NCBI GenBank assembly: GCA_010093995.1
Contig: ML992519.1
Span: forward strand, 158,699 to 178,698
DNA length: 20,000 bases
Source of the DNA: Elsinoe ampelina
Taxonomy: Eukaryota
Reading direction: 5' to 3'
The notes under the pieces were generated by a model, which had not been told where the DNA came from, did not search any database, and saw nothing but the letters and a program-made list of their open reading frames with translations. Shown here in pieces: positions 1 through 20,000 of this stretch. A program made the position numbers and the translations under genes. Position 1 is the stretch's first letter. Each line of letters begins with the position of its first letter.

Positions 1-720
1 ATTACTATAACTAGTATCTACTAGATAATAATAACCTTTAAGTATTTTAAAGCTTTAGGTTTAAGCTAAATTTAGCACCTTAGAGTTATATATAGATCTC
101 TTCTATCTAGCTAAGATAAAGGTAAAGTATATATTAAAATTTACTACTACTAGTATATTCTAAGATAGTATACCTTTATAATTCCTCTAAGCTAATAGCT
201 CTCTAGTTATATAGACTAGAATATATAATCTATTAAGCGCTCTAATATAGTCTTTAAGATAAGGCTAGAATTTATAATTTTAATAAAACTAGATAGGTAT
301 ATTCTCTACTTTAGTTACTAGCTTTACCTCTCTTAAATAGAAGCTATATAAGCTATTAATAACTAAATAGAATATACCTCTAATCTACTATAGTAAGCAC
401 TTTACTAGTACTACTATTTAATAATATAATAAGCTAGCTATAATAATATAGAGAAAGATAAGAAGATAGTAATAGGCCTTAAATATTATATCTCTAGTTA
501 ATAGTACTCTTTTATCTCTCTTAAGGTACTAAAGAAAAGTATTAAATATTAACTAGTAGTACCTTAAGAACTAGTAGAGGTACTTTAGATAGTCTAGTAT
601 AGTATTAAGGAAATTAACGCCTCTATATTAATTTATTTAGTATATTAAAGAGATAGTACTAGAGAGAAGACTACTACTTTTAGTAGTAATTATATAGCTA
701 GAGAAGAATAACTATAGTAA
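1..720 (-). pseudogene. PIF/Harbinger (DDE_Tnp_4-like) transposase relic
   Basis: One minus-strand frame reads F*PYLKDYIRALNRLYILV (from 270 down), RNYKGILS*NILVVVNFNIYFTFILAR*KRSIYNSKVL and GYYYLVDTSY (36-7). Reversing G>A/C>T transitions gives FWPYLKDCIGALDGSHIPV, RNRKGxLSQNVL, FVLAGWEGSAHDSKVL and GxYYLxDAGY. These are the Harbinger DGxH / AHDS / YLxDxGY motifs in the correct order and spacing. The 5' end is uncertain. Confidence 0.88.
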
Positions 721-1594
721 GGTAAATAGTAGTATTAGCTATCTATAGAGGAGTCTTACTAATTAATAAATAGATTAATAAATTATAAGTCTTATATCTA
801 ACTACTACTATCTTTAATAAAGGTCTCTTCTAAATAAAGTATTACTAGCTAAGTAGCTTTACTACCTCTATAGCTTTAATACTAGCTTAAATAAGCTTAA
901 ACTAGCGCTAATTATTAAACTTAATATTAAGCTACCTTATTAAGTATTTAGAAGAAGTAACTTATTAAATAAGAAATAAAGACTTTATAGGCCCTAAGTA
1001 GATTAGTAGAACTATAGATAGTAGAATATATATACTCTAACCTAATATACTTTAGCCTCTTATAACTTTATTAAGTAAGTATTATAATATAGAAGTATAT
1101 TTTAGTACTTATAGCTACTAGAAATAGTCTAGATAAAGCTAATCTTAATAAAGATAGAACTAAGAGTAATAAGCTAAGTTATAGTCTTAATTATAAGATA
1201 TAGCTAGTACTTAGCTTTAGTAGACAACTAAGCTCTCTATATAAAGGTAATATAGTTAAAGCTAGCTATACTATTAGCTATTCTTACTATTAATCTCTCT
1301 ATACTATTTAACTTATATATTACTATTTATTTTTCTATATAAAAACTAATATCTCTCTCTATACTATTATATTTACAATTTTGACCCTGGCTACTATTTA
1401 GTCTATACTAAATTAGGAAGTTAGCTAGCCTACTTAGGTAAGAAGCTTTATAGAAAGTTTATAAGAGCTGTATTATCTAGCGTTTTTGTCTAAAACTAGG
1501 CCTATTCTAGCCGATCTCGCGAAGGAAAACGCCAAGCCTAGTCACCTTATACTAATAATCTCTCTCTACCGTTTAAAGCCTAGTTCACGAAGCC
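1..1594 (-). mobile_element. RIP-inactivated PIF/Harbinger DNA transposon (truncated by the window start)
   Basis: Very AT-rich, TpA-saturated, CpA/TpG nearly absent up to ~1370, fading by ~1600. Contains a RIP-mutated Harbinger transposase frame (next feature). The right end at ~1594 is tentative (…GAAGCC|TAA, i.e. TTA|GGCTTC… on the minus strand). Confidence 0.75.
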
Positions 1595-2115
1595 TAACGG
1601 TATAACCAGCTTTGACTGTATGTAGCACCGGCTTGTTATTACCGGGCAGAACGTCTTAGAAGCCGCCACGTGCCTTATCGAGGAGGACCATGTCCTGCTG
1701 TGCGCTGTCTGCGACAGAGAGTCTCCGAGTATGCACCAAAGGCGCGGAATTCCGTCGGCTTATGTTGAAATGGATCAAAGACCGATCTGCAGAGTCGTAC
1801 CACGTGGCGGGCTATCCTTTAGCCATGGGAGCCGCAAGTGGATTACCTCGCGTGTGAGGTCCGGGGTAAGGACGTTTACGGTTCCGGTCTGGAATTGTTA
1901 TTGGGGTTGGATCTAGCTCGGCAAAGCATGTCTTGACTAGTCTGTGACAATGCTGGGTATCAATTCGTTCGACTTGTCTGAAAGCCTATATCTTCGTGTA
2001 AACGTAGTGCCGCACAGAGCACTTGGCAACGGGAGGTGATAAGTACTCTGTTTGATGCGAGGAGCCACGTATTCCTAGCCCGCCCAGAAACGATCATCTG
2101 TCATGTCTGTGAGAC

Positions 2116-3488
2116 TCATCGATTGGCGCGTTTGTTGGTCCACAATCCCATTGTTGTCTCCTTGATCTTCCGTTCCTGCTCTTTGATCTGGGCTTGTGTC
2201 TGGCCTCTCGCGTTGCCCCGACTGTCTCCGACCTCTTCCATTTGAACATCCCCATCATCGTCAGTGTTGGGTCGAGCGTCTGCTAGAGTTTGAGCGACAC
2301 GATCTGGGTTCGTGCTGGTGGCTCCGTCCATCATGCCCATGGCACCTCCAGCGCGGAGCTGATTGATAGCGCGTACGGTGTCAATAGCCTTATGGAGTGT
2401 CCGGCGGGCGTTGAAGTTCTTCTTGACCGTGGGCAACAGATCTTCCTCGCCTCTTCCACCTTCTGGTCCTGCGATCCATTCGTGGGCTAACGCCTCATGT
2501 GCCGTCATGCGTTTCGTTGGGTCGATCGTCAGGCAGCGTTTGATGAAGGCGCGGGCTGACAGCGATACGCCCCTCCAGTATTCGATTGGGGTGAAGGAGT
2601 AGTCGGCGACAAGGATGGCTTGCATTTCTTCGAGATTGGAATCGCGATCGAAGGGTGTGTAGCCGCACAAGAGGAAGTAGGTAATGACACCGATGGCCCA
2701 GACGTCACTGCAGGTTATCAGCAAGGTATTTCTCCAGCGATTGCGACTTTACTGACACTGGCTTGCCATGACCAGTCTTCTTGAATATTTCGGGAGCCAT
2801 GTAGCCTGGCGTGCCGCATGTCGTAGTCAAGACATGGAATTGCTCCTCGTCCATGATGCGGGACAGGCCGAAATCTGCTATGAGCAGGTCTGCATTGTCT
2901 TCCGGGGTACGAAACAGGAGATTCTCCGGTTTGAGGTCACGGTGGACAATACCGTGGTCGTGCAGATAAGCTACTGCGGACAAAGTCGCTCGTATGAGGT
3001 CTGCCGCGTCCGACTCGTAGTATGATCCTTTCCTGCAAATGCGGTCGAAGAGCTCACCACCGAGCGCCAGGTCCGTCACCAGGTATACTGAGCTTCATCA
3101 GCCTTGAATGCGATTGCCTGGCAAGGAGACGACTCACAATTGTTCATGGTCTCAAAGTAGTCGACCAGTGTGAGGATGTTCTGGTGTCCCATTGACACTC
3201 TCTTCAATACCGCAATCTCATTCCTGACCATGTGCTCTCTCCCCATCATCAATCGCTTGTTGATCACCTTGGCCGCGTAGAACCTGGCACTGTCAATGGG
3301 TCGCTCGTTATGGAGTGGTGGGGAATGCTGACCGGCCAGAGTCGATATGTACACATTCCTGCGCAAGTCAGCAAGACATTATACAGATCTCAGAATCCAC
3401 TCACCTTGACGACACTGTACGATCCGGCACCCAGCGTCTTGCCGGTCTTGTACCTGCAGGGCTGGACCTGAGGTGTCGGAGTAGACAT
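2116..3488 (-). CDS. cmkB: Calcium/calmodulin-dependent protein kinase (CaMK I-like, Aspergillus CmkB type), ~392 aa
   Basis: Exons 3488-3405, 3358-3333, 3283-3138, 3087-2757 and 2707-2116 total 1179 nt in frame. Introns are 46/49/50/49 nt, GT..CAG. Motifs: VQPCRYKTGKTLGAGSYSVVKECVHI, YAAKVINK, HRDLKPEN, DFG, TTCGTPGYMAPE, DVWAIG, and the CaM-binding-like KKNFNARRTLHKAIDTVRAINQL. Confidence 0.95.
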
Positions 3489-4569
3489 GGTTTGTGCCGA
3501 TGACTGGGAGGTCGAGGTCAGGCGCTGAATGCTCGGTTGCGGCTCCGAATGTTCTGGAGTAGCTTGAACTATGGCGCAAGGAATTTGCTGCGTGCTATGA
3601 TTGTGCAATGGCTGTGTGAGAACATGTGAATTAACAGATAGCGCTGCTGACTTTCAAGTTTCAGGTGACACGACCGAAGCGACAAGGCAGGCAAGTTTCG
3701 GCTAAAAGGTGGGGTATCCGGCCCGCCCCCACTTCCCGTCGACTGTGCACCCTCTCCACTGCCTGAAATAATCACTATAAGATATAATTCTGGTAATTAT
3801 ATTAGCTCTATCTTTCGATACCAGATATCTGATTCATCTACTCGTGTTGTGATAGCTGTTACAACCAACCACACCTTTCAGATTGCGGAAAAAGGACGCA
3901 AACATTATGCGAGTGGAGAGGATTGTGCACTTCAACTTCGGTGACCATACTTGATGAATTTCTTAATGCTTTGCACGATTGATTCAGTACTCCGACACAG
4001 CTTCTTCAAACCCCATGGATGTTGACACTTGACTCACTCACTATCTAACAAAAATATCAGTCAACTTGTCTCGAGGCTGCATTGTTGGATAGACCGCCAC
4101 CATCGCGTGACCGCGTGATGCGAATTTCCTGGTCATCTGCCACTTTGGAAAATCACAGTCGTGTTGCCATTGCGCATCGGACGAGATTATCACCATCCCA
4201 TATCCTCATCAGTCGGTAGTGCATCGACGCTTTCGTCGCATTTCATTGAATCATTACCAGATTAGCGCTGCAATGCTTCCAGTAATCTGATCGACTTTAC
4301 TCAAATAATGCACCACACGGGTCTAAGGCTGCAGCGCAAGCAGTCATCAACTGTGGCCACGCGCGCACCTGATCTGCTCAAGACGGAATGATGTACTCGA
4401 CTCATCCTTACATGTCATCTGTAGGTAGCGTATGCTGCTTGCTGTCTCGGCATAGCCATGTTTACCACCCTTTGACCGCCATCTCTCCTCCACAGCATCT
4501 CTGCTTCCACAGTCTAGCCCTACTTTCAAGTCACTATATCATGACCAAGCCCTAGCAGATCTGCGTATC

Positions 4570-5913
4570 ATGACAGAATACAGCATACAGCGAGCACGTC
4601 CGCTCAAGTTCGACCAGGACGTCCAGGTCAGAGAAACCCGCCAGGAAGACAACGTCACCGATGGCCGACCTGCAAGATCTCAACTGTCCTTCCTGGTGGG
4701 ACAACTACCAGCTCTGATCAGGCACATCCCTTCATACACCAGAAGGAAGGGCGTCAAACATGTCAACCCGAAGAAACACTACGTCTGGGTCTTTGACAAC
4801 ATCGCCTTCAGAGCCTCGAGTACCGACAAGGAAGAGATGGCTGCCAATACTCCTCTGGAGGATTCGATGAATTCAGACAACCCATTTTTCAAGATGATGA
4901 ACCGCGAGAAAGATCCCTGGCAGGTCGAATACGTCGCCGCCTTCTTCAAGAGGAAGGGAGGAAAGGAGCTGGCAAAGAGTGTTGGGCGTCTTTGCCGCGA
5001 GCTTGACGTTGAACAAGGTAGCCTGTCAGAGGATAGAGTCAGATGTCGGGTGCAGCACTTTGTCGACCATGTCTTACCAGGGCACGCTATACACACAAGT
5101 ATCGGCCATGGTATTCGTCATCTCCACGGCCCGTCATCTTCTTCTGGACTTTCGCTCACCTTCTCGACGCTTCCGACTACTGGCCGTGACCCACAGCATG
5201 TGGTCGTGAACTCATTCCCGGGCGCCAAATCAGCTCGCTGCTTCCTTGCAGGTACTACCACATTCGCCGAGCCCACTGGCTGGGGTGTCATATCCGACAT
5301 CGACGACACGATCAAAGTGACGCTCACCGCTTCATCACTGGGTGTGCTAACTACCACCTTTCTTGAGGAAGCCCGACCAGTAGCAGGAATGCCACAGCTC
5401 TATTCCTCGTTACAGACTCTTCTTTGCTCGCCGACCTTTTTCTACGTCTCTGCTTCACCATACAATCTTTATCCGTTCCTCCGAAATTTCAGAGAAGAGT
5501 ACTTTCCCATGGGGCCCATCATGTTGCGGGAGAGCACATGGCAGTCTTTCGGCGGCCTCATCTCATCTCTAATGGAGGACGTTCAAACATACAAGCTCGA
5601 TCGCATTACGAAGATCCACTCTTGGTTCCCGCATCGTCGATTCATCCTCATTGGCGATTCGACCCACAAGGATCCGGAGACGTACGCAGATGTCATCAGG
5701 AAGTATGGTGATTGGGTTGTTGCTGTCTTCATTCGACGAGTGACGGGCGTCAGCGATGTTGGCAATCCACATCAGGAGGAGAAGAATAGTGACGAGAGAT
5801 TTGAAAAGGCTTTCGAGGGTATTGATACGTGGAAGTGGTTTGTTTTCGATGAGCCCGAGGAGGTGCAGGTCATTGTCAGCCAGATGGTCGATGAAGGAAC
5901 ATCGGTCAGCTAG
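4570..5913 (+). CDS. App1-like phosphatidate phosphatase (HAD DxDxT; DUF2183-type), 447 aa
   Basis: Single-exon ORF with WGVISDIDDTIK, FFYVSASPYNLYPFL, FPMGPIMLR, FPHRRFILIGDSTHKDPETY and VFIRRV, the conserved blocks of the APP1 catalytic domain. Confidence 0.85.
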   Translation: MTEYSIQRARPLKFDQDVQVRETRQEDNVTDGRPARSQLSFLVGQLPALIRHIPSYTRRKGVKHVNPKKHYVWVFDNIAFRASSTDKEEMAANTPLEDSMNSDNPFFKMMNREKDPWQVEYVAAFFKRKGGKELAKSVGRLCRELDVEQGSLSEDRVRCRVQHFVDHVLPGHAIHTSIGHGIRHLHGPSSSSGLSLTFSTLPTTGRDPQHVVVNSFPGAKSARCFLAGTTTFAEPTGWGVISDIDDTIKVTLTASSLGVLTTTFLEEARPVAGMPQLYSSLQTLLCSPTFFYVSASPYNLYPFLRNFREEYFPMGPIMLRESTWQSFGGLISSLMEDVQTYKLDRITKIHSWFPHRRFILIGDSTHKDPETYADVIRKYGDWVVAVFIRRVTGVSDVGNPHQEEKNSDERFEKAFEGIDTWKWFVFDEPEEVQVIVSQMVDEGTSVS

Positions 5914-6271
5914 GCCAGCTGGGCTCGGATGGCGCTCGGTGTTGAAGGCATGAGTGATACCCAGACGGTTTGCGCATCTTTCTTGATGATAGCGTTTCTA
6001 CAGGCGTTTCGTTCTTGCGAACAAGAGGGAAATAATCGGGCATATCGGGACGGAAGCATCGCTTCGAACACATAGTCAACTGAGATCTGTTGCTAGTATT
6101 CTGGTAGTTATCTAATCTACACTCTATCTATCATCGCTCATCGTATTCGTTCAGGCTCAACACCTCTGCAGCAATGTGATTCGCTGTTTTAGTCGACCGC
6201 CTTTCTCCTGTCGTAATCATCGTCAACTCATCTGTCCTCTGGCCATCTTATCTCGCCCAGTCCGCATATAC

Positions 6272-7882
6272 TCACTTCTTCTGCAGCAAGCTGGATCCAG
6301 TCATCTCCTCAGGGATTGGTAGGCCTATTGCTTCCAGCATCGTGGGGGCAACATCGCCGAGCACACCGTCCGTCTTCTTCAAGCTCCAGCCATCTGGTGC
6401 ATTTGCCATGACAAATGGTACTTTGTTCGTTGTGTGAGAGGTTTTGGGTGTCTTCTTCTCGGTGAGCATTTCTTCGGCGTTCCTGTCAACTGTAAGTGTC
6501 TGTCCATACCCTCCATGGCATATTTCTTACCCGTGATCTGCCGTGATGAAAAGAATGTATCCGTGCTCTTTGCAAGCTTCGTATACCTTGCCGATGGCTT
6601 TGTCGGTTTCGGTGCAGCCTTCGATGGCGGCCTTGTAGACTCCAGTGTGACCGACCATGTCTGGTGGGGCAAAGTTCAGAATCAGAACCTCATGCGTCCC
6701 TTCCTTGATGCGCTCAGCCATTTTCTCACCAACCGCCATGGCGCTCATGGTGGGTTGAAGGTCGTATGTGGCTACCTTGGGCGAAGGGATCAAATCGCGG
6801 TCTTCATTGTCAAATTGGATCTCCCGACCACCGTTGAAGAAGAAGGTGACATGTGCGTACTTCTCCGTCTCGGCGATATGACATTGCTTGACGCCTTGTT
6901 TCGAAAGCCACTCGGCGAGCACGTTATCCATGACTTGAGGTGCGAAGGCGATAGGGAAGTTGAAGTCGGTCTTGTAGCGGGTCATGGTTGTGATGGCGAT
7001 GTTCTTGGGGTAAGGGAAGTCGGGTTTGGGGGAGCGGTCCTGGTCGCCCAGAAGTTGTGTGACCTCGCGGACTCTATCGGATCGGTAGTTGAAAAAGAAG
7101 ACGGTATCTTCATCTTGGATCCTGCGCTTCTCGCCTCCAACAATGATGGGCTTGAGGAACTCGTCTGTCTCGCCCTTACCATATCGCTCTTCAATCGTCT
7201 TGGCCGGATCTTCCGAGGCCTCACCCTCGCCTGTCACTAGACCTTTCATGCCGACCTCGACCCGATCCCAACGCTTGTCTCTGTCCATGATGAAGTAGCG
7301 GCCGACCACGGTCGCAATTTCACCGAGGCCAATCTTCTTGGTGTATTCGAGCAGATCCTTCATGTGACCGAGGCCGGACTTGGGGTCGGTGTCGCGGCCG
7401 TCGCCAAAGAAGTGGATATAGACTTCCGGAATCTCAATCTCCTTTGCGACCTCGAGGAGGGCTTTGAGGTGGTTGATGTGGGAGTGGACACCGCCGTCGC
7501 TGACGAGACCGCAGAGGTGAAGACGTCCATTCCCTTCTTTTGCTCGCAGGAAGCTCTTCCGGATGTTCTCGATCTTGTTCAACTCCTTGTTCTTGATTGT
7601 CTGGTCGATTCTGACCACGTCTTGCCACACGACCCTGCCTGCGCCAATGTTGAGATGACCGACTTCGGAGTTGCCCATGAGACCTTCTGGCAGGCCGACG
7701 GCGAGAGAGGAGGCTTCGAGCTCAGTGTAGCCTTGGGTGATCTTGGAGCCGGTCTTCTTGAATTCGTCCATCCATGGTGTGTCGGCATTGAGAATGGCAT
7801 CTCCGTCTGGAGGGGAGGATTCTGATGCGATGCCCCAGCCATCGATACAGATGAGGACTGCCTTTTGCTGGAGTTTGGCCAT
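6272..7882 (-). CDS. gpmI: 2,3-bisphosphoglycerate-independent phosphoglycerate mutase, ~520 aa
   Basis: Exons 7882-6531 and 6482-6272 total 1563 nt. The 48-nt intron GTAAGA..CAG joins TADHG to NAEEM. Motifs: LICIDGWG, GLMGNSEVGHLNIGAGR, SDGGVHSH, DGRD, AETEKYAHVTFFFNGG, PDMVGHTG, SHT, GDVAPT. Confidence 0.97.
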
Positions 7883-8359
7883 TCTCGCGGGTTGTGCAGT
7901 GAATAGAGCAATTGAATGATTTGGAAAGGAATTGAAGAGAGACAGAGATAATTGGCGAAGCGGTGGATATTTTGGCGAGCTCAGCCTGTTCAGCACTGAC
8001 GTCTCTGCCCTGATCTGTTTTTGTTGCGGGGCAGCCTTTTAATAAAGATCCTTGATTGTTGAGCTTTGCTTTGAGCTTTGCTCTGCGAGTGCGGGGCAGA
8101 GTCGGAGAGTTTAGGACCCGACAATGTCCGACCAAGGGATCGATAGGGGAAGAGCAGTAGAGGCAACGAGGCAGCATATTTGTACATTTCAAAAGACCAC
8201 TACTCCTCGCTTCGCTATCATCAGATCAATATTGTACATGTCCCACCAAATACTACCAGCAGCCTTGCGCAACTCAATCAAGTCTTCTAAAAGGCTTATT
8301 ACAATCTCTACCATGAACGACAAGAACGAAACGAACAAAGACACCTCCCTGCTATCTTT

Positions 8360-11300
8360 CTAGACCGTGACTGACGCGGGCTCACTCGTGCTCCCCACCC
8401 TAGGCGTGCTATCGAGACTGGCCTCCCCGCTCCGGAGACCGGTCGAGCCGACGGTGCTGCCATTCCTTTCCGCTCCAGTAGCAGTACTCATGCTCCTCTC
8501 TGTATCTCCGGACAAGGCTGCCTGAGCTGCCAGTCTTTCCCTTTTCTTCAATTCTCTCTCCTCTTTTTCAGCTTCCCTCTCGAGCCTGTCCTTGTCGATC
8601 TTGATCTTCTCCTCTTGTGCCAGATTGAGGGCGTCGATGTAGGTCCTGAACTTCACAATCTCGCGCAGAAGGTATGCAGACTTCTTCTCCCAATTGGCGA
8701 TGGCTTTGTTGAGGTTGGGATGACGTGCAGAGTACTGGTCAATTGTCAGCCAAGGTAGATACAGAGCATATGCGGAAACTTACAGCTCCAGGAATTTGTG
8801 CTCGAAGGTCGTTGTGCTTGGTGAGCTCGGCCTCCACGGACGCGACGTAGTCCTTGAGACCTTGGAGTTGGTCGACCTCCATCAATTGTGAGGCCATCAT
8901 ACTCTGAGCAGGCGGCTTCCAGTCCTCGAGGTTCACCTTGTCGCCAGCTGTTCTCGCTCTGATCATGTTATGATCGATACTGCCACGTATGCTGCCGGCA
9001 ATGCTTGCCCTTGTTCCTGGACCGTGAGCAGATTGAGGAATCGAGATGCTGTTCTGTGCCGAGTGACGACCAGATCGGCTTGGTGGTTTGGACGAGTTCG
9101 GATCGGGACTCCCTTGAGCTGTCGCTGCCGCGATTAAGCATGGATGGATGAGGGTAGGAGCGAGGATGTTGTCACCCCAACCATATTCGATGTTGTCCAC
9201 ACCGCCCTGGAGTGGCTCCTTGCTTAGACGAGCGGACCAGTAGTTGGCTGTGTTCATGAACTCTTTGGCGATTTCAGCGGTCCCGACTTGGAAAAGATGA
9301 ACTGCGCCGGTCGGAAGTGATAGAGCCCAGACGTGTGGGCGAGCCTTGCTGTACCCGGGAGGTGGCAGTGTCGATGCGATGGTCTGACGAAGGAGAAAAG
9401 ATCCTAGAGATTCCGCACTTTGCATCCAATTACCGCCACCGACGACCGAGGGTGCGATCGATGGTGCCTTGCCTCGGGCTTGCATTGACTTGCGAACACC
9501 GAGTGAGCCAGTCTTGCCGCCCTTGGAGTTGAAGGAGAACAACCGCAAGTAGCCCTTCTCGATCACAGCAAAACATTCGTTCCAGTTTCGCTCTTTGGCT
9601 TTCTTGTCCGAGGCTTCCAGGTGGTGCTTGTGTTTGAGAATACCTTCCTTCGCCCAGGGAGCACCAGCAAGCTCGAGTGAGTCGTCTTCGAGAAGAAATT
9701 TCTGCGGGTTGATGGACATGTTGTCGTCTTCGATACCGTCTTCTCTGGCGTTGGACTGGGACAGAGCATTGGCGAATCCAATCTGCTGCGGGAAGAGTTG
9801 GTCAGCGCCGATGCCGTTGGGATCGGTGTTCATGGTCAGTGTCCTTGAGAACTTGCTCGCCGCGGTTGAGAAGATACTGCCTCCGTCGTCAAAGGATGTG
9901 CGTGATGACGCCATCGTGGATGAGCCGTAGAATTTGGATCTTGTGCGATTCCGGCCCCAACGACCAGACATGCTGTAGAAATCAGACTTCTTGGTGCGGA
10001 CGGACATTTCTGAAGGCGCCATCGACTTGCCCGAGTTTGTCCTACGAAGGCCGGGGCGATCCTGGCGGTTGAGTGGGAGAGCTTCGTTCTTGATGGCGGT
10101 AAAGAAAGACTTGAGGATCGCTTCCAACTCGTAGTGCCACTCTGCGGGCTTGCCGTCAAAACGCTCGGAGATGAGGGCGTTTGATCCACTGTTTGGCACA
10201 AGTTGTTGCTCTTCGTCGGCCTTGGGAGCGTTCATACCCAGGGACCAGGACATGCGCTTGGTGAGGGTTGGACGCCTGCTATCGACAGAGGATCGGCGGT
10301 TGTCCGCTACCTCACCCGATTCGATGGTCCCCATGGAATTGGACGAATCATGCCACTGTAGGCCTGGTCTTTCCGGACGGTCGGCGGGATCGAATGCTTC
10401 GGGAGGCGCTTCGGCGACAATCTTCTTGATCAGAGGTAAGGTGTTCTTGACGAATTGGGCTCTGGTCATGCGGTTGTCGAGCTCAGCGACGTGCATGTCG
10501 GTATTGAGCAGAAGAAGACTGTAGAAGACGGTGTGGACGCAGTCCTTTAGCTTGAAGCCATGGTGTGGGTTGCACTCGCACCATCGTGCTGCAAGTGCGT
10601 CGAGGATTCGATCGACCTGCTGTGATTCTGCTTTGAGGACCAGTCGGTTGCAGAGCATGCGCATAGCTCCCAGGATCGTCTGGCCGGTGAGATTGAATAG
10701 CTCGACATACGCACGGAGGGTGTTGACGCTGGCTGTTTTCCTGTCTCCGAGAAATGTGGCTGCCGTCGCGCGAGGCACAAAGTCTTCGTCGCCGTTGAAG
10801 ATGGACAGGGCATGCTCTCGATCTTCGAAAGTAGGGCCTTCCAGAATACCAGACATGGACGACATTCCGGTTGCGGTCGTTGCGATGGACATGTTGCGAT
10901 TCGGGTCTGACCCCTGGCGCTCACTCCGAAGATTGTCCATGTATGGGCTGGATGCTTGACCTTCGACTTGGAGTGATGGAACAGCCGACGCCGGCTCATA
11001 CGAAAGACCGAGATCGTCGGGAGATGTTATCCTCGCCTCCATCTTTGGTGCTTGTGACAATTCATTTGTCGGGGTGTAAAAGGTATCGCGGTCGGACGGA
11101 GTGTCATCTGCACGACGCGAGGGAGAAGGCTCAAGATAAGTCGTGTACCTGATTGTTGAACGTTCTCCTTGCTCGGCTTGGAGTGAAGTTGTATCGACCG
11201 CGAGGTCTGGTCTGGCCACGGATCTGGCCAAGCGTGTCTCACCATCTCTGGGGCTTGTTCGCCCCTTGCCTGTAGAGCTGCCTCGTTCATTCGCGGAGAT

Positions 11301-13139
11301 AGATCGTGTGTGTGAAGGCGGGGGAGACAACGAAGTCGGCTTTTCCTTCTTTCTCGGCTTCATTTGTAGTGTTGGACTTTGACCACCTGCCATGCTGCCA
11401 TTGCGTAGTGGCAGCTCTGACGTGGAAGGTGCGGCACTTGGGCGACGTGCCTCATTCGGCGTGATGCTCTTGCTTCTGATCGGGGCATCTGGGGACTTGT
11501 CGTAACCATTGTGGAAGAGCTCAGGGTCGTCCGAGTCTTCGGTGGAAGGCGATGTTTCGTCCCGCTTGCGAGGCTTCTTGTTGTCAATGGCGTTTTCCCG
11601 CGCGAGTTGTTTCTGCGTTTGGCTTGCCTGGTCTTTGCTTGTCAGGTAAGGATCCATTGCTTTGTAAAGGCTGCTTCGTCCTGGTGTCGGGGCGTCGTTG
11701 ACAGCTCCGGACAGCTGTGGTGGCTGCGGCATCGCTGGGACATCTCCGGCATCTGCGAGTGACTTCTTTCGGCGGCGGAAAAAGGAGGAAGGCTTTTTGG
11801 TGAGCTCTCGTGTACCTGCTGGAGCGGGAGAAGAGTCGCGATCTCTCTTGGTTGTGGAGGCATGGCCGTTAGGGTAGTGGATGTTGGAGTACGAACCCTG
11901 CCGTGATACTGAGGGACTACCAGATTGATTGGCTGACTCGCTGTTGTTGAGGTTGCTACGGCTGTTGGAGGAGCCAAAGACACGCTTGAAGAAGCCTCTC
12001 TTTTCTTCTTGCTGATAGTTCTTGTGCGGAGTACTAGTAGGAGACTGGTTGGCAGAGATGTTGGTCTGCTGCAGACTCTTCATGCTGCTAGCTCGAATGA
12101 AGTCGCCTGCGGTTGTGCGGACACTCTCAGGGACGTCTTGTGGTATTCTCGGACTACGCGGGATGTCGCTTTGTGATTGCGAGCTCTGTTTTCTGAGTGG
12201 AGCGGTGACCCTCTGGTCCTTTGCTGTCGAATCATATGTTTGCCTAGATGAGCTCGGGCTGTCTTTCTTCGAAGCTGCTGGTCCACTTGGTACGGATGGC
12301 TCAGGCGCAGAGCTCAGAGGAGTGCCATTTGAAGGTATCGGTCGACCTCGAGATAGAATCGAGTCTTGCAATCTCCCAGTCCGACTTCGCGAGCGATCTC
12401 TGTTCTGATTGCGATAGTCTCGTTCGCGTGATCCGTCCCTTGCGTACATTCTGTTCGGCGATGCCGACATGCTGTCCCCAGTTGTAATATCACTGCTCTT
12501 GCTTCCGTGTCTGCTCCATCCTCTTGCCGTCCGGACTGTGTCTGGACTCTGGCCGTCGACTGACCCTCTCATGCCGGTCATGATCCGTGTAGCGCTGAGG
12601 GCGGATGGTCGGCGGGTGTGGGGGGAGTCGGCATTGTTGGGTCTGCTCGGCGATTCGTTGCGGTCTTGCTCAGAGGAGATTGAATTTGAGTGATTGTGGC
12701 CGCGAGTGCGGTACGTGTTGAATTGGCTCATGGGCGGACCTGGCGGGCTCTCGTTGGAGCTGGGATTTGGCTGATTCGAGAATTGATCGAGCGACAAGAG
12801 CAAATTGTCAACCAGCGAGTCTCTGGTATGGCTGGTCCAGGACAGACCGTGAGAATGCTTGCGCTGCGTCTTTGGGCGAGAGGATGAAGAGGTACTACCA
12901 GTGGAGTTGGCCGGGGGCCCATCCTGCAACGGCTGATTGTCCTGGTGTGTGACTGTCGCGGTGGTTGGTGAGCGTTGTGAAGGGTCGCTAGCGGAACCGG
13001 TGTCAACGGTGCGGCCACGACGAGATGACCTTTGTCGTGTGAAGCCCGTCAAAGATGGGGTGGGGGAATGAGATGGGAGCGACTTGTTGTCGCGCGACAG
13101 GGGATGGGCATCCTGCAGCAAGGGGCTGCCCTGGGCCAT
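8360..13139 (-). CDS. Sec7- and PH-domain Arf guanine-nucleotide exchange factor (Syt1/EFA6-like), ~1576 aa
   Basis: Exons 13139-8784 and 8734-8360, with a 49-nt intron GTAAGT..GCTGAC..CAG. Long S/P/R-rich N-terminus. Sec7 glutamic-finger LKAESQQVDRIL and YSLLLLNTDMH; PH region PWAKEGILKHK..W..F..GT..EF..TANYWSARLSKEPL; C-terminal coiled coil with NWEKKSAYLLREIVKFRTYI. An extra 5' exon cannot be excluded. Confidence 0.92.
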
Positions 13140-13859
13140 TAGGAGTAGAGAAGCGCGGCGGTACCTGCAGGAGACGTCCTGTTCTGTAGAAGTGTACTAG
13201 TTACTGAGTCTACTGTAGTATGCGAGGTGCACGGCCGCTGGATTGCCTGTTTCGGATAGCTCCTTTCTCTAAAATGCTGTAGAGTCGAAGCTTGTGTACT
13301 AGGCGTAAGTAAGGCAGGAGCTACATCATGGATGGTCTCAAATTTGATCAGTGCAATTAAACCAAGGCTTCAGGTGCGTGATATGCAAGGGGGATCAAGA
13401 AATGACATTATACTCGAGGGACTGCAGATGATTCAGGTCATATTCAGCAGGGTCGTCTGCGCCAAGGAAAGCTCCATCAACACATGATAAGCCAATCCTC
13501 GACAATCGCATCACTGGAATGGACGGCAAATGAATTGAATAGTCAAGCGGATCATCTAGAAGAGAAGCTCAAGAGGACGACGGCAAGAAACCATAGGCTG
13601 AAGAGTATCCTGAGGGATACTAGAGAAAAGATTGAAAGACAGAATTCTGGCTGAGCTAGAGAAGAGCCGTGAGATATCGGAATCCACGTGGAGCTGCAGC
13701 AGAAGGTCAAGGAGCACAATGCATTAGCTGTGGTAGTTTTAGAGCGTTATAGAACTACCGACAGTAGCACACAGTTTCTGAAACCCCCTGTAGCCGTGAA
13801 ATTCGTCGTCAAGTGGAAGCCCCAAATTTCGGCAGTTCTGCGGTGCCGTGACTTCTCGA

Positions 13860-14057
13860 GCCCACCCATGGGCGATTTGGAAGACCATACATTCTAGTCC
13901 TCTACGCCGACTTGCGAAGAGATGGTGGAAACGCAATGCTTCCCTTCTGCAGAAATATCCCGACCTGGCTGCGTGGGTTCTACGATCATTCATGACGGAC
14001 AGGATGAACATAGCAGCTTCGCCATCGAGTTCACTTTGGGACGGGGAAACCACGTGA
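13860..14057 (+). pseudogene. Possible C-terminal fragment of a fungal BTB/POZ-type protein
   Basis: IWKTIHSSPLRRLAKRWWKRNASLLQKYPDLAAWVLRSF resembles the 'SPLRR..…YPDFA.D.L' helical tail typical of fungal BTB proteins. No intact upstream gene is visible. Confidence 0.35.
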
Positions 14058-14726
14058 CCCGACCTGCCCTGCAGCCATCAATCCCGACTGACGCCCACAG
14101 GTGCTCCTCGACAGCCTGAAGAGGAGGCAGATCCGCCACGGTTGCATGTCTTCAATCCCAGCTTGAGAGTAGCTTTGAACAATACCCTAGCAGGAGCTCT
14201 TCGAAAAGTGGGTCAGTTCCCCCTCTCATCAAGCGCAGCTCCAGTACTGTTCCCAATAATAACAAGAATAGAATGCCAAGGCGACACGAACTCAACTACT
14301 ACCAACAAGACCTCTTCATCAAGAGCAAGGTGATGATTCTCAGCTTGGGTCGGACGCTTCTTACCATGGTATGCACAATTCAACCACGCCAAGACGTCAT
14401 TGTCCAACAGATTGCATGCGACTCGTTCGCACGCAACCTTTTCCAATGGAGCTGATCATGCCTCTCGAGATGTACACGTCAAATGTGACAGAGAAAGAGC
14501 AAGTCCCTACAGCTTGTATAATCCAGACATCGCGCTCGCTTTCAGCCATTGCATTCAGGGTATCGAGATGGAAGGAGTCAGGGAAGCATTGGATGAGCCG
14601 GGCTCACGGAAGTCAGGTTTCGTCGTCACCTGTCCAGTTCCGCACCCACAACATAAATGCCACCCACACAAGGAACTTTGGTCGAGATCGTCACTCCGAA
14701 GATATCGCCGTCCAACCCACTCAAGG

Positions 14727-15449
14727 AAGCCGTTCTCCTACGGCCTCGTCTGACGGCTACGATGGCTCAGACAACGACATTCACGATTCATCACGATGAG
14801 GAAGAGGAAAGTCACCTGATGCCATCAGGATCAAGGACGAAGGCCGGGCCAATGTATTTCTTCATCCATCCTTGTGAAGCACTTACTATCGCACAGAGTA
14901 CTCACTCTCGAGAAATTGTGCTGATCATCATTGCTCCGGCAAAAGAGAATCGCTATATCCATCGCAACCCGCTTCAAATCGGGACATGAACATCTAAACG
15001 AACAGGATGGTATGTCAACTCTTGCACTTGCAGCAGCGCCTACATTTACGAGACACGCCAGACTGTGCATGTTCGTAGAGAGCGACGCCATCGATTCTCC
15101 CGCCAGTCAAGTCATGCTCGCGCTGCCCCACGACGACGCTCGCGTAGTCGAAGACTTCATCCACTGGGCCTATTTTCAGCACCTACCAGCAACGCCATCG
15201 ATTCTCCCGCCGGTCAGGTCATGGTCGGAGACTTCATTCACTGGGCCTATTTCCAACGCCTACCGGCAACCCCGACTACAAGTAATGAGACACGCCAGAC
15301 TGTGCATGTTCGCAGAAAGCAACGCCATCGGTTTTCTCGCCAGTCAGGTCGTGCTCGCGTTGAATGACTTCAAATCAACGATCGACAGGATTTTTGGGCT
15401 TTACGTAGATCATCATCAAAGCAGTCATCGTGTTGTCATTCCGAAATGA
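14727..15449 (+). pseudogene. Degenerate BTB/POZ-like gene, copy A
   Basis: Pieces in different frames: SRSPTASSDGYDGSD; DEEEESHLMP; EIVLIIIAPAKENRYIHRNPL (BTB beta-strand-like start); LALPHDDARVVEDFIHWAYFQHLP (LPEDD..F..W.Y motif); HARLCMFAESNAIGFLASQVV (L.V.A..Y.I..L motif). A degenerate 45-nt intron lies at 14854-14898. Confidence 0.6.
15050..15359 (+). repeat. Interleaved short direct duplications A-B-a-B'-A'
   Basis: 15050-15122 vs 15287-15359: 73 nt, 8 mismatches. 15147-15193 vs 15224-15270: 47 nt, 6 mismatches. 15188-15223 is a third partial copy of A (3 mismatches vs 15081-15116). Confidence 0.95.
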
Positions 15450-15600
15450 CCTGACAGTAATGTGCCAGTGCTCATGCGGTCCTTCATGGAAGATCGGAGG
15501 ACCATGATGCACATCCAACATCTAATTCAGGCGTTGCTGTCACGGGCGGCTTCGCGTGGCATTCGTTGAAAGCTGGCACAGAAGCTTCAGCTGAAGTGTC

Positions 15601-16182
15601 ATGTGGTTGATTGCCTCACTCGTTCTCGATGCCTTGGCCACTGCTTTCTCTCAGGTCACTGCTGCTGGAGCCGTCAGTCTGATGTGCTTGGTAGTATCAT
15701 GCGGGATCGACTACCACTCCCGGATACGTGACTGCGACGTAAGTTTTCCCGATGAATTTGCTCAAATGCCACGCGCTGACTCCCCCAGTTTGGACTCCAC
15801 GAAGATGTCGCACGCTTCTCGATATTCACCCGCGACTATTCCCACTACAGCAGCCTCCATGGTCAAGATACCGCGGACTCGCTCCAGCAGGCCCCAAACA
15901 CCGACATCTGCCCCACTGATCCCAGCGTTCCGGGAATCACCACAATTACATGAACATTCACCTGCGTCTCTCTCTATTACGGCAGCTTTCAAGGTCAAGT
16001 CAACGGTCCCAATGGCGCCAAAGATATCGCAGTCTCCTCAGAGCGCCAATGAGCCAATAAATCCTACCGATATCTGCCCAGAAGGTTCTCGAGGCGTGGA
16101 CGGTGCATCTCCGTCGACCGTGCTGGGGCCGCACACAAGACTGTCGACCAAGAGATCACGTGGATCGACCGCGATGCAATAG
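15601..16182 (+). CDS. Hypothetical S/P/T-rich protein or gene remnant (193 aa ORF; possibly starting at the ATG at 15766)
   Basis: Open frame with an in-frame internal repeat (YSPATIPTTAASMVK / HSPASLSITAAFKVK). No recognisable domain. Confidence 0.3.
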   Translation: MWLIASLVLDALATAFSQVTAAGAVSLMCLVVSCGIDYHSRIRDCDVSFPDEFAQMPRADSPSLDSTKMSHASRYSPATIPTTAASMVKIPRTRSSRPQTPTSAPLIPAFRESPQLHEHSPASLSITAAFKVKSTVPMAPKISQSPQSANEPINPTDICPEGSRGVDGASPSTVLGPHTRLSTKRSRGSTAMQ

Positions 16183-16541
16183 CCGAGACACCCATCGAAC
16201 ACCACGGTCCGTCGTACATTTGCTAGGTGATCAATCCTATTCATGCATCACCAGAGAATGCCAAATGCATGTCAATACTTCGTCAACGATCTTCGCCTCC
16301 CTCAGCGATACCACATCCGACACTTACCAAGATGCGCACTAAGCAGTGTCCGAAGTGTCAGCACCCAACAACATGGCATTTGAAGCCTCTCCGCCGACAC
16401 CATGAGGAGGTCATAATGGCATCAAGAGATGAAGCCTTACATTGGGGTCATCATTGGCGCAGCTTGCAACCGCGCCTGAACTGAATAGGGGAGCGATCGA
16501 ACTCGTTGTCGATGCACTCACACCATTCACTCAGTCCAATG

Positions 16542-16835
16542 AAGCTATTCACCTGCAGCTTCGTCCGATGGATCGGACGGCTCTGATCACGAGATGACGA
16601 TGAGGAAGATAGTCAGCTATTGTCCCCAGCGTCAGAGATGGAGACTAGATCAGCGTACGTGTCTCTTCTTCCTTGTTAAGCACTCACTAACACGCATAGT
16701 CTAGGCTCTCGAGCTATAGTCCAGGTCATTATTATAGTCATTGTCGGTCAAGGCAAGAAGGACCGACGTAACTACCATATACCCCTCGAGCTGCACGGCT
16801 CGTTACACGAGGAAGAAGAAAGTCAGCTGTTCCCT
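16542..16835 (+). pseudogene. Degenerate BTB/POZ-like gene, copy B (5' part only)
   Basis: SYSPAASSDGSDGSD; then, frameshifted, DDEEDSQLLSPASEMETRS; a canonical 45-nt intron 16655-16699 (GTACGT..CTAAC..TAG); then in frame LGSRAIVQVIIIVIVGQGKKDRRNYHIPLEL. Collinear with 14727-14980. Confidence 0.6.
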
Positions 16836-18391
16836 TTTTGCCTAAGGAGAAGACGTGTCCATCGAAGATTAAGCATACTTTGCTACGCTACGGGTGTAAT
16901 TTAACAAAGCGCCTAACCGAGGAAAAGGCTTATAGCGATTATAGCACGCTAAGCAAGAGTAGTGTAAAGAAGACAAGAGGTAGAAAGATGTCCCGAGGTC
17001 CCTACTTTAGTACTAAACTGTCGTCGTGTCCCTTATACTACTTCTGTCCCTCGGGACACTATCGATACTACTTCTCCTCCTACTCCTTAAAGCTAAGGGC
17101 GCCTAAAGAAGAATACTACTCCCTATACTAACTAGTATTCTATTTAAACTATCTAGAAGTTATAGCTAGTCTTGACTCTAGACACTATATGTCTTAGGAG
17201 GAAGAGTACATTCTAATGGTTTTACTAGAGCAGGGTTAGGGTATTTTCCTAGATTCTAATAGGATTCCTAACCTCTATTCTTTTGCTTTTTCTTCTATTT
17301 TTTCTTCTTGAAATTCTTAGATATTACTTACGTTATCTTAAGCTTCTATAATTCTTAGTATCATCTAGAATGATCTAGTATTACTCTTAGAATTATAGTT
17401 ATAGTATGCCTAAAATGTCCTAAAAATGTTTTAAAGTTCCCGAGGAAATATAGAGTATAGGCCTTAGTAGCTTTAGTCCTAGCAGCTAGGAACACTAGAG
17501 TACCCCTATAAAACTAGTAGCGCCTAGGTAGACTAGTAGACATACATAGAATACATGCTAAAGTAGAGTAATTTTCCTAGTAGACATAAGGTCTAACAAT
17601 TATAAATAACTATATAGAATTTATAATGTATGCCTAAATACCTAAACCTAAGAATTGTTAGGAGGACACCTAGGCCTAGGAGCCTTAATTAATAAGATTA
17701 ACAGCTAGGATCTTTAGTATAAACACCTGTCTTTTTTCCTGTCTTTGTCTATTCTATCTACTTCCTAGTATTCCCCTATGATTTCCCTTTGTCTAGCTCT
17801 CTTAGAATAGCTAGATTAAAATTTAATAGCCTTTTATAATACTCAATTAAGATCTAGTAAGCATATTATATAGACAGGAGTCGAAATAGAATTCTTAGGG
17901 GCTATAGCTATACTAGGATATAGAGCTACTATTATAAGTTTATTAATCTAAAGGTTTAGTCTATTATTCTTATTGTATTACCTATTGTTATATTGCCCTA
18001 GGCAATAATAAGCTCTTATATAAAATTGTTAGGAAACATTCCTAGGTTAGCCTCTAGCACCTAGGCATAGGTTAATACATTCTAAGTCTCTAGGGCATAT
18101 AAACCTAAGTATTTTACATGCTATATTTATATGCTTCTTTGTTATTATATTACTCTTTGTTTTATATGCCTAGCTACCTAGCATGACTTATAGATCTTAT
18201 ATATCTCTTTTATTCTCTCTAGCTTTCTTTCTTCCTCTTCTTATTACCTTTATTATAGTAAGTTTGCTCTATTATAGCTAGATCCTTATCTAGTCCCTTT
18301 AAGAGAGTTAAAGTAGCTAGAGATGCTACTATAGAGATTAAACAGCCTTTAATTAGCTCTAGAAAGAACTAGCTTTATAGCTTACTTATAG

Positions 18392-18427
18392 CCTTTATAG
18401 CCTTTATAGCTTTTATAGCTTTTATAA
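18392..18427. repeat. 9-bp tandem repeat (CYTTTATAR) x4, with degenerate copies just upstream
   Basis: cctttatag cctttatag cttttatag cttttataa. Confidence 0.8.
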
Positions 18428-18704
18428 AGCTTTTTACTAGTAAGAGATAGATATCCCTAGGGTTCCTTTACTTTAATAAGCTTAGTAGCCTTTATAGTAA
18501 CATATATAGCTTTAGTTAGCCTACAGATCTTATCTCTACTGCCTTAACTCTACTAAGAGACCTTAGAAGAGGACCTTTAGTAAATATAAGCCTTCCTAAG
18601 AACCCTAACTAACTATAACTCCTAGCACTAGCCCCCTAGCTCTCTCGCAATTTTGCCCTACCCTCCTAAATAATTCCCTAAGCCTAGTGCTCCTAGCAAC
18701 TATT

Positions 18705-19685
18705 ATAGCTCCTAGAGCCTAGCACCCTAGAACTCCTATTAACCTCCTAAACACTACTAGTAATAAGGTTACTAACCTAAACCTCCTAAGTACGTCTTAA
18801 ACTCCTAACCTAACCTAAATATACTAACAATTCTAGGCTTTACCTAGGTCCCTATAACTCTAGGATTTACCTAGTAGGTCTAGGCTAACCTCTATAGGCT
18901 TAGCTCCGCCTAGCGCGACACTCTAGATCCCTAGGTTAAACCCCTAATCAATTAGGACCTCTAGTATTTTAGCAAGCCCGACTCTAAGTTCTAGCTTAAC
19001 TAGCCTATTATCCTAAGGAACCCTAGGACTGTTATAAACCTCTCTAGATCTAATACTAACTACTTAGTTTCCCTACTTGTCTATAGTGCTAATAGGTATA
19101 CTATCTACCTAGCTAGTTAGGAATATACTTTCTATACCTAGGAGAATAGCAAGTATAACTCCTATATTACTATAAGGACTCCTAATAGCACTATGCTCCT
19201 AAGGGGTTCCTATACTAACTATAGCTTCTAGAACAATTATTATAGCTATAGCTTATCTAGTACGTATTTCTAAGTTTCCTAATCGATCCTAACTAACATA
19301 AGTCCTAGACTACTAGAGAGCTTCTAGACGCTCCTCTACTAACTCTACCCCTATACGTCCTAGGGCTTCTAGACCTATAAGACACCTTAGAGGTCTCCTA
19401 ACCGACGATAAGGCTACTAGGAGCTTCCTAATTAAGCTTCCTAACAACTCTAACTCTTCTAAGAACTAGCGTGCCTTAGACAATTTCCTAGCTCTCCTAG
19501 ACGATATTAAGACTTAGGTAACTACTCTAAGAGACAGGGGCTACTTAGTAGAGTAGGACAAGCTCCTAGATCTTACTAAGTTTAGGCTTATCTTTAATAA
19601 GGCTTAGGGCTAGTTAGGATCATATATGGCCTTAGGGCAACTTTAGAGGATATTAGGATAGAGTAGCTAGCTCTCTTAGTTTTCT
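18705..19685 (+). pseudogene. RIP-killed three-exon gene with six-Cys DUF3716-like domain
   Basis: Introns 18790-18836 and 19260-19308 (both GTACGT..CTAAC..TAG, phase 1) join a frame whose stops are all TAG until the TAA at ~19686. TAT (from TGT) codons at 19124, 19133, 19163, 19211, 19220 and 19247 give C-x2-C-x9-C-x15-C-x2-C-x8-C. The 3' end is uncertain. Confidence 0.75.
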
Positions 19686-20000
19686 TAAGTGTAAGGTAAG
19701 TAAGTAGCTTTCCTAGGGTTTAGATAGCTTTTTCTAAGTGTTCTAGATGTTATAATAGACTAGCAAGCTCCTAAATATTATAACTCTAGTTCTAAATTAG
19801 AAATCTTCACTAATAGTCTATTAAATTTCCTAGTGTTCCTATAATATATAAGTGATATAGTGTCTTTCTAATATGCTTAAACCTTCTAACCTTAGGTTAG
19901 AATTCTAAGCTTAGCTAAGAGTTAGAGCAATCTTAGGGTCTTTCTATAATTTATACCTAATATAATATTCTTCTAATTCGCCTAGACCTACTTACCTTAG

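Follow-up and report, generated by a model that had tools for sequence, protein, structure and literature searches.

The stretch of DNA considered here (the window) comprises 20,000 nucleotides of contig ML992519.1 of the Dothideomycete plant pathogen Elsinoe ampelina (assembly GCA_010093995.1; positions 158,699 to 178,698 of the forward strand). A gene island (~1500-16900; GC content, ~0.52) lies between two AT-rich blocks (1-1500 and ~17000 to the end), and the right-hand block holds a repeat that contains a gene relic (Table 1). The relic (18615-19607) is a dead copy of a gene with 298 codons and two introns, the product of which carries the domain DUF3716 (Pfam PF12511); repeat-induced point mutation (RIP) has turned this copy into a pseudogene. 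Its intact relatives are two hypothetical proteins of the same species, BDZ85DRAFT_309722 (298 aa; P0003 below) and BDZ85DRAFT_31462 (KAF2220791.1; annotated as partial, 246 aa; P0002 below), which are 88% identical to each other in a word-indexed search and whose genes are on separate large contigs (1.0 and 2.0 Mb). We consider it nearly certain that the relic is a RIP-killed copy of a multicopy DUF3716 gene, and very probable that this holds jointly with a second proposition, namely, that the copies form a dispersed repeat family at the level of DNA. The gene can thus be recovered by eye from RIP-scrambled DNA that lacks open reading frames (ORFs).

Table 1. Features of the right-hand AT-rich block (window coordinates)
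Feature	Position	Strand	Remarks
Multicopy RIP-mutated repeat block	17175..20000	.	Contains the gene relic; continues past the window end; may be a mosaic
Exon 1 relic	18615..18789	+	Codons 1-58 and first base of codon 59; BLASTP
Intron 1	18790..18836	+	47 nt, phase 1; GTACGT...TACTAAC...TAG
Exon 2 relic	18837..19259	+	Codons 59-200; 13 premature TAGs
DUF3716 (PF12511) six-cysteine domain relic	19112..19255	+	Corresponds to P0003 residues 151-198
Intron 2	19260..19308	+	49 nt, phase 1; GTACGT...CTAACTAAC...TAG
Exon 3 relic	19309..19607	+	Codons 200-298; native stop TAG at 19605-19607

Structure and identity of the gene relic

For homology searches, the exons were translated with X at the stops. 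Exon 2 read in this way (140 aa) had a single match among 1,835,955,588 representative proteins, which was P0002 (E = 1.7e-35; query residues 2-140 on P0002 residues 31-169). The same exon aligned with P0003 residues 60-199 (BLASTP, E = 7e-65), while exon 1, read from 18615, aligned with residues 1-58 (E = 3e-30; 84% identity) and exon 3 with residues 201-298 (E = 5e-51); the codons split by the two introns correspond to residues 59 and 200. Over the spliced sequence 18615-19604, all 298 residues of P0003 align without a gap, 211 of them identical and 87 different. As the exons fall on consecutive blocks of P0003, the intron positions are confirmed, provided that the gene model of P0003 is right. 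The two introns are present just as a preliminary description of this DNA had placed them (47 nt at 18790-18836 and 49 nt at 19260-19308). The relic and the two intact paralogues therefore represent the same gene with the DUF3716 domain at the same position, and the gapless alignment implies that P0003 has the same exon layout. The relic differs from both paralogues in having 18 premature stops, no start Met, and none of the domain cysteines.

The limits of the coding sequence (CDS) were revised with the help of P0003. The spliced frame proposed in the preliminary description (18705-18789 / 18837-19259 / 19309-19685) comprises 295 codons and, as had been noted, contains TAG as its only stop (24 TAG, 0 TAA, and 0 TGA); TAA codons number 14 and 25 in the two remaining sense frames of this spliced sequence. 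The start had been put at the ATA at 18705, which corresponds to Met31 of P0003 and to Met1 of the partial model P0002, whereas the annotated start of P0003 points to the ATA at 18615 (Met1), three codons past an in-frame TAA. The end also moves, from 19685 to 19607: the native stop is the codon next after the last residue aligned to P0003, and the last five TAGs of the original frame (19608-19685) lie in 3′ flanking DNA.

A TAG-only frame is by itself only suggestive, because similar frames exist on the minus strand, where the right-hand block has TAA/TGA-free frames of 102 and 107 codons too, and because the introns were picked to keep the frame open. The frame and its intron-like signals might be accidents of TA-rich DNA, in which CTAAC and TAG are common strings and other TAA/TGA-free frames of at least 100 codons occur on the opposite strand. 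An E value of 1.7e-35 among 1.84 billion proteins, the correct order of the three exons on P0003, and an alignment that runs through all 298 residues without gaps and whose 87 differences all have one direction (see below) refute this explanation, to which we assign virtually no probability.

The identification of the domain, made from its cysteine pattern in the preliminary description, was borne out by the intact relatives. PF12511 scores 45.0 bits in P0002 and 45.1 bits in P0003 (residues 151-198), against a Pfam gathering cutoff of 22 bits. The three X-read exons of the relic matched no Pfam family even at E values of up to 10, which is expected for PF12511, as all six cysteines are now tyrosines. 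The cysteines of P0003 at residues 155, 158, 168, 184, 187, and 196 all lie within the PF12511 match and form the pattern CxxC-x9-C-x15-CxxC-x8-C, which is read here from P0003 alone and which we take to be typical of the DUF3716 family. The relic has TAT at the corresponding positions (19124, 19133, 19163, 19211, 19220, and 19247), each one G>A change from TGT. The reversal of exon 2 tyrosines to cysteines proposed in the preliminary description was hence right for the six domain residues, all of which are Cys in P0003; the pair read as YY was HH, and the Tyr of KYN is Tyr in P0003 as well. In the ESM Atlas, 19 of 30 feature hits were DUF3716 clusters of Ascomycota, which adds nothing beyond Pfam, and all structure hits had template modeling (TM) scores below 0.5 by query length.

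Word-indexed searches, for which P0002 and residues 135-205 of P0003 served as queries, returned no proteins beyond these two, and a metagenome scan for P0003 relatives gave 171 pattern matches, none of which was confirmed. Thirty of 246 positions distinguish P0002 from P0003, and all of these except one fall within the first 115 residues, the C-terminal 130 residues being otherwise identical; such a pattern could reflect patchy divergence or gene conversion.

RIP as the inactivating process

To characterize the 87 residue differences, we asked which of them can be obtained from codons for the P0003 residue by transitions in one direction. All 87 are obtainable by C>T/G>A changes only, and none is obtainable by T>C/A>G changes only. 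In a shuffle control in which the 87 replaced residues were permuted (1000 trials), on average 15.9 differences were explained (maximum, 32 of 87). The minimal changes comprise 35 C>T (28 at CpA, 6 at CpC, and 1 at CpT) and 52 G>A (46 at TpG, 3 at GpG, and 3 at CpG), which places 74 of the 87 at CpA or TpG. RIP, to which the preliminary description had attributed the decay of this DNA, thereby accounts for every amino acid difference. The effect on individual codon classes is close to exhaustive: TAG has replaced 18 of the 19 Gln codons, the sole survivor being CAA; 6 of 7 Cys codons, namely, the six of the domain, are now TAT; all 6 Met codons are now ATA (Ile); and 7 of 8 His codons now specify Tyr. 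With its one-way differences and with every hittable Gln, Met, and domain Cys codon hit, the relic is a clean worked example of the process; in other respects, it is nothing out of the ordinary for a RIP relic at an AT-rich block's edge.

The premature stops had been explained as products of CAG or TGG codons. The first origin holds for all 18 of them; the second does not apply, as P0003 contains no Trp. Since the gene used CAG for Gln and had no Trp, TAG was the only stop that RIP could make. When these changes are reversed along the alignment, the product before mutation reads as identical, residue for residue, to P0003. On the same comparison, the copy in the window cannot make the protein, because its Gln codons have become TAG, its domain Cys codons Tyr, and its Met codons Ile.

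Such a copy might still be used if adenosine-to-inosine (A-to-I) editing repaired the stops and the Tyr and Ile codons (UAG>UGG, UAU>UGU, and AUA>AUG). The 52 G>A changes are formally reversible in this manner, and PSC58, a DUF3716 gene of Fusarium graminearum, is reported among the restoratively edited pseudogenes of Fusarium (PMC10776026). The 35 C>T changes, on the other hand, are irreversible by A-to-I editing, the 18 stops were Gln codons and would all read Trp once edited, and the copy is embedded in heavily RIP-mutated DNA among many other dead copies. Restorative A-to-I editing is, to our knowledge, known from Sordariomycetes and not from Dothideomycetes, which also counts against its operation here, and we regard continued use of this copy as extremely improbable.

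Spread of the repeat and a possible mobile element

Copy number was examined with contigs from two runs (X1 and X2) of one organism, aligned on 16000-20000 of the window at a likeness of at least 80%; X1 and X2 contain 87% and 80%, respectively, of the sampled words of window positions 12000-20000. The unique flank is covered by a single contig (depth, 161), which spans 16000-17203 in X1 or 16000-17207 in X2 and stops there. From ~17196 on, 445 (X1) and 466 (X2) contigs align at 80 to 99% likeness, covering 17200-20000, in line with the multicopy state of the gene proposed in the preliminary description. The summed depth of these contigs, which is not equal to copy number, ranges from 256 to 9127 over the repeat block in X1 and from 256 to 5141 (X1) and 874 to 8819 (X2) over the bins of the gene. 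Single positions within the gene are variable as well: the window A is read as G by 13 (X1) and 16 (X2) contigs at 19123 and by 14 (X1) and 15 (X2) contigs at 19512. The source genome thus has numerous diverged copies of the gene together with its flanks. At the differing places in X1, the window A appears as G 124 times, T as C 154 times, C as T 43 times, and G as A 31 times; the excess of G and C in the other contigs indicates that the window copy is among the more mutated ones. A further run (X3, from another organism) aligned over just 34 nt and is uninformative on presence or absence there.

These data also bear on the idea that the gene is single-copy and owes its damage to RIP that leaked out of adjoining repeats. 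Traces of RIP do extend some 500 nt into the unique flank (16650-17175), yet the gene region is covered by numerous diverged contigs (in X1, at 1.6 to 32 times the depth of the unique flank), and up to 16 contigs have another letter at one place in the gene. We therefore consider such leakage a very improbable cause of the damage to the gene.

The similarity among copies extends past the CDS, as seen from contig matches at 18366-18712, 19178-19898, and 19208-19811. In another copy, intron 1 is retained (contig match 18690-19122, 0 gaps), and intron 2 is spanned without gaps by the matches at 19178-19898 and 19208-19811; no joint that skips an intron was found among the contig alignments of X1 and X2. 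As the introns run without gaps through other copies, the family multiplied as DNA and not via spliced RNA. A processed (retro-)copy and a gag/pol relic of a long terminal repeat (LTR) element are ruled out by the presence of both introns in the window and in other copies. The Pfam scans likewise gave no reverse transcriptase, gag, or integrase match, in agreement with the preliminary description, which had argued that the gene is not a gag/pol relic. At 17175-17178, contigs of other copies enter flanks that are unlike the window and different from one another (agreement, 0.59 to 0.70). This heterogeneity indicates that the copies are dispersed.

Several irregularities were seen among the copies. 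Joints that skip 343, 165, and 405 nt occur in single contigs, which may be deletion derivatives; with 24 to 48 nt on the shorter side, the joints are too weak to use. The bin with the highest summed depth, ~50 times the unique depth, is 17206-17339, within the sub-block 17175-17345. At 17283, five contigs depart from the window sequence and share a single continuation (agreement, 0.96), and 17175-17345 probably represents a repeat piece, either different or rearranged, that adjoins the gene-bearing one. Approximately 200 nt upstream of the gene, at 18375-18425, are 9-nt tandem units (AGCCTTTAT / AGCTTTTAT). A less mutated copy, with intact CA and TG dinucleotides, has a loose end at 18413 and loses register exactly there, from which it follows that the copies vary in the number of 9-nt units.

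In short, a gene-bearing repeat multiplied as DNA, and C>T/G>A mutation by RIP killed the window copy. By analogy with the Zymoseptoria tritici element ZtREP9, later named Styx, the repeat could itself be a DNA transposon or be carried on one. ZtREP9/Styx is described as a Class II element, 7.9 kb long, that belongs to the IS3EU superfamily (PMC8232023, PMC10853768). It is reported to have 43-bp terminal inverted repeats (TIRs), 6-bp duplications of the target site (TSDs), and four genes, two of which (REP9-1 and REP9-2) carry DUF3716 (PMC8232023). The same source states that the DUF3716 genes are constant in REP9 at all nine sites of one Zymoseptoria strain and that the copies in sister species are RIP-mutated pseudogenes. 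Two of the four reading frames of Styx are described as putative DNA-binding genes or motifs (PMC10853768). Like ZtREP9/Styx, the Elsinoe repeat is a DNA element that has a DUF3716 gene and is present in many copies in a plant-pathogenic Dothideomycete, and RIP has inactivated copies of both. ZtREP9/Styx is defined by an rve/DDE transposase and by its TIRs and TSDs, whereas the Elsinoe repeat is known from the part within the window. On this analogy we judge it moderately probable that the gene is part of a mobile element, the repeat being a DNA transposon or traveling on one.

A competing explanation is that a host family of DUF3716 genes was amplified by segmental duplication, or was passively captured by a repeat unrelated to it, before RIP struck, the gene being no functional component of a transposon. 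Two intact, annotated paralogues on different contigs fit this explanation, as do the large number of DUF3716 genes in Ascomycota, the missing transposase relic within the window, and the uneven depth and internal loose ends, which suggest a mosaic. In fungi, the amplification of a host gene by transposons and its subsequent mutation by RIP have been described (PMC6710886). Hundreds of diverged contigs, with at least 13 to 16 variants within the gene, are nevertheless far above a family of two or three members, and the similarity continues past the CDS on both sides. The heterogeneous flanks at the left boundary, and the constancy of the DUF3716 genes at the nine REP9 sites, also argue against a host family, which we consider an unlikely, though not a negligible, origin.

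The transposon reading has to be weighed against a number of further points. In 31 other X-read TAA/TGA-free frames covering both RIP blocks of the window, Pfam recognized no relic of a transposase, a recombinase, or any other family (best E, 0.17; all below the cutoffs), although RIP would hide a transposase there. Summed depth, besides being no measure of copy number, is uneven between bins, with extremes of 1.6-fold and 57-fold the unique depth; the repeat block is probably a mosaic, and the shared left boundary at ~17175 may belong to a repeat other than the gene-bearing one. As the block continues past the window end at 20000, at most one end of the repeat (~17175) lies within the window. 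P0002 and P0003 are the only two intact relatives on record and could be ordinary host genes. Finally, the likeness to REP9 is one of DUF3716 content.

If the repeat is a transposon, the label "unclassified" given to it in the preliminary description may be too strong, since the published ZtREP9/Styx already carries two DUF3716 genes. REP9/Styx was found by its authors in Zymoseptoria only (PMC8232023, PMC10853768). In the literature searched, DUF3716 is mentioned in no paper on Elsinoe, and the papers listed for RIP in E. ampelina contained nothing on the present repeat. More specifically, and only tentatively, the repeat might represent an undescribed family of Elsinoe DNA transposons in which the intron-bearing DUF3716 gene is a constant component and encodes a DNA-binding transposase partner that recognizes the DNA of the element, a proposal that we rate as rather unlikely in this full form. 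Such a family could be Styx/IS3EU-like or belong to another superfamily. If it exists, the two intact paralogues would belong to copies that RIP has spared and whose activity may persist, and DUF3716 would be a recurrent transposon-accessory domain in Dothideomycetes rather than merely an orphan host domain.

With respect to the intact protein, the CxxC-x9-C-x15-CxxC-x8-C arrangement of P0003 is plausibly a zinc-binding module, judging from its sequence, and this module would bind DNA as well, perhaps that of the element itself. A zinc-dependent DNA-binding role is favored by the combination of the cysteine module with the behavior of NCU05718 of Neurospora crassa, a recombinant protein reported to bind double-stranded TTAGGG repeats directly in vitro (PMC4650311). 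PSC58 of F. graminearum is a DUF3716 protein reported to be orthologous to NCU05718 (PMC10776026). NCU05718 and PSC58 have the DUF3716 domain in common with P0003 (PMC10776026); unlike the Elsinoe gene, they are single host genes and not repeats. The binding by NCU05718 is the only experimental hint at a role for DUF3716. The window shows no enrichment of TTAGGG (10 occurrences versus 9.9 expected). A sequence search of the PDB had a best E value of 0.47, and an AlphaFold2 model of P0003 alone was unusable and was not used (predicted local distance difference test [pLDDT], 36.6; predicted TM score [pTM], 0.23), both of which count against the DNA-binding part of the proposal. By analogy with NCU05718, a DNA-binding function of the intact protein is possible, although we lean slightly against it.

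Elsinoe is a second Dothideomycete genus with a DUF3716 gene in a multicopy DNA-level repeat, which strengthens the lead that ties this widespread orphan domain to DNA transposons and DNA binding. BDZ85DRAFT_309722 and BDZ85DRAFT_31462 are probable members of the repeat family, and this is relevant to their annotation and to lists of effector candidates.

Genomic setting of the repeat block

At the borders of the AT-rich blocks, GC content falls from ~0.52 to 0.24-0.41. RIP-mutated DNA has a high TpA/ApT index and a low (CpA+TpG)/(ApC+GpT) index, the usual limits being ~0.89 and ~1.03, respectively. The two indices are 1.8 to 2.8 and 0.06 to 0.47, respectively, in both AT-rich blocks, 2.80 and 0.22 over 18705-19685, and 0.52 and 1.28 in the gene island (1501-16900). 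The left block (1-1500) is mutated still more exhaustively, with 4 CpA and 4 TpG in 1500 nt (index, 0.06); in a comparison of repeats within the window, it had nothing in common with the right block beyond 30-nt matches at 67 to 73%. Between 16650 and 17175, a RIP signature (TpA/ApT, 1.75 to 4.25; GC content, 0.45 to 0.49) reaches into single-copy DNA, which looks like leakage from the repeat into the unique flank. RIP-degraded repeats that form AT-rich blocks beside gene islands are likewise described in Leptosphaeria maculans (PMC3105345); nothing essential differs between the two, and the likeness concerns the general setting and no specific repeat family.

The island contains genes for a kinase, an APP1 phosphatase, iPGM, and a Sec7/PH exchange factor. 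The Sec7/PH ORF (8742-13196, minus strand) is 83% identical to a protein of E. fawcettii, 72% to one of E. australis, and 69% to one of Sphaceloma murrayae among the matches listed (at least 120), which include no E. ampelina protein, in contrast to the relic, whose product before mutation equals one; the E. ampelina gene model for this protein may be missing or may fall outside the length range. Seven ORFs of the window had no counterpart in a look-up of exact sequences. At 15050-15362 are 76-nt direct repeats (88% alike and 237 nt apart), together with families of 40- and 50-nt repeats. They sit within ORFs without a Pfam match (14925-15449), which look like a gene for a repeat-containing protein.

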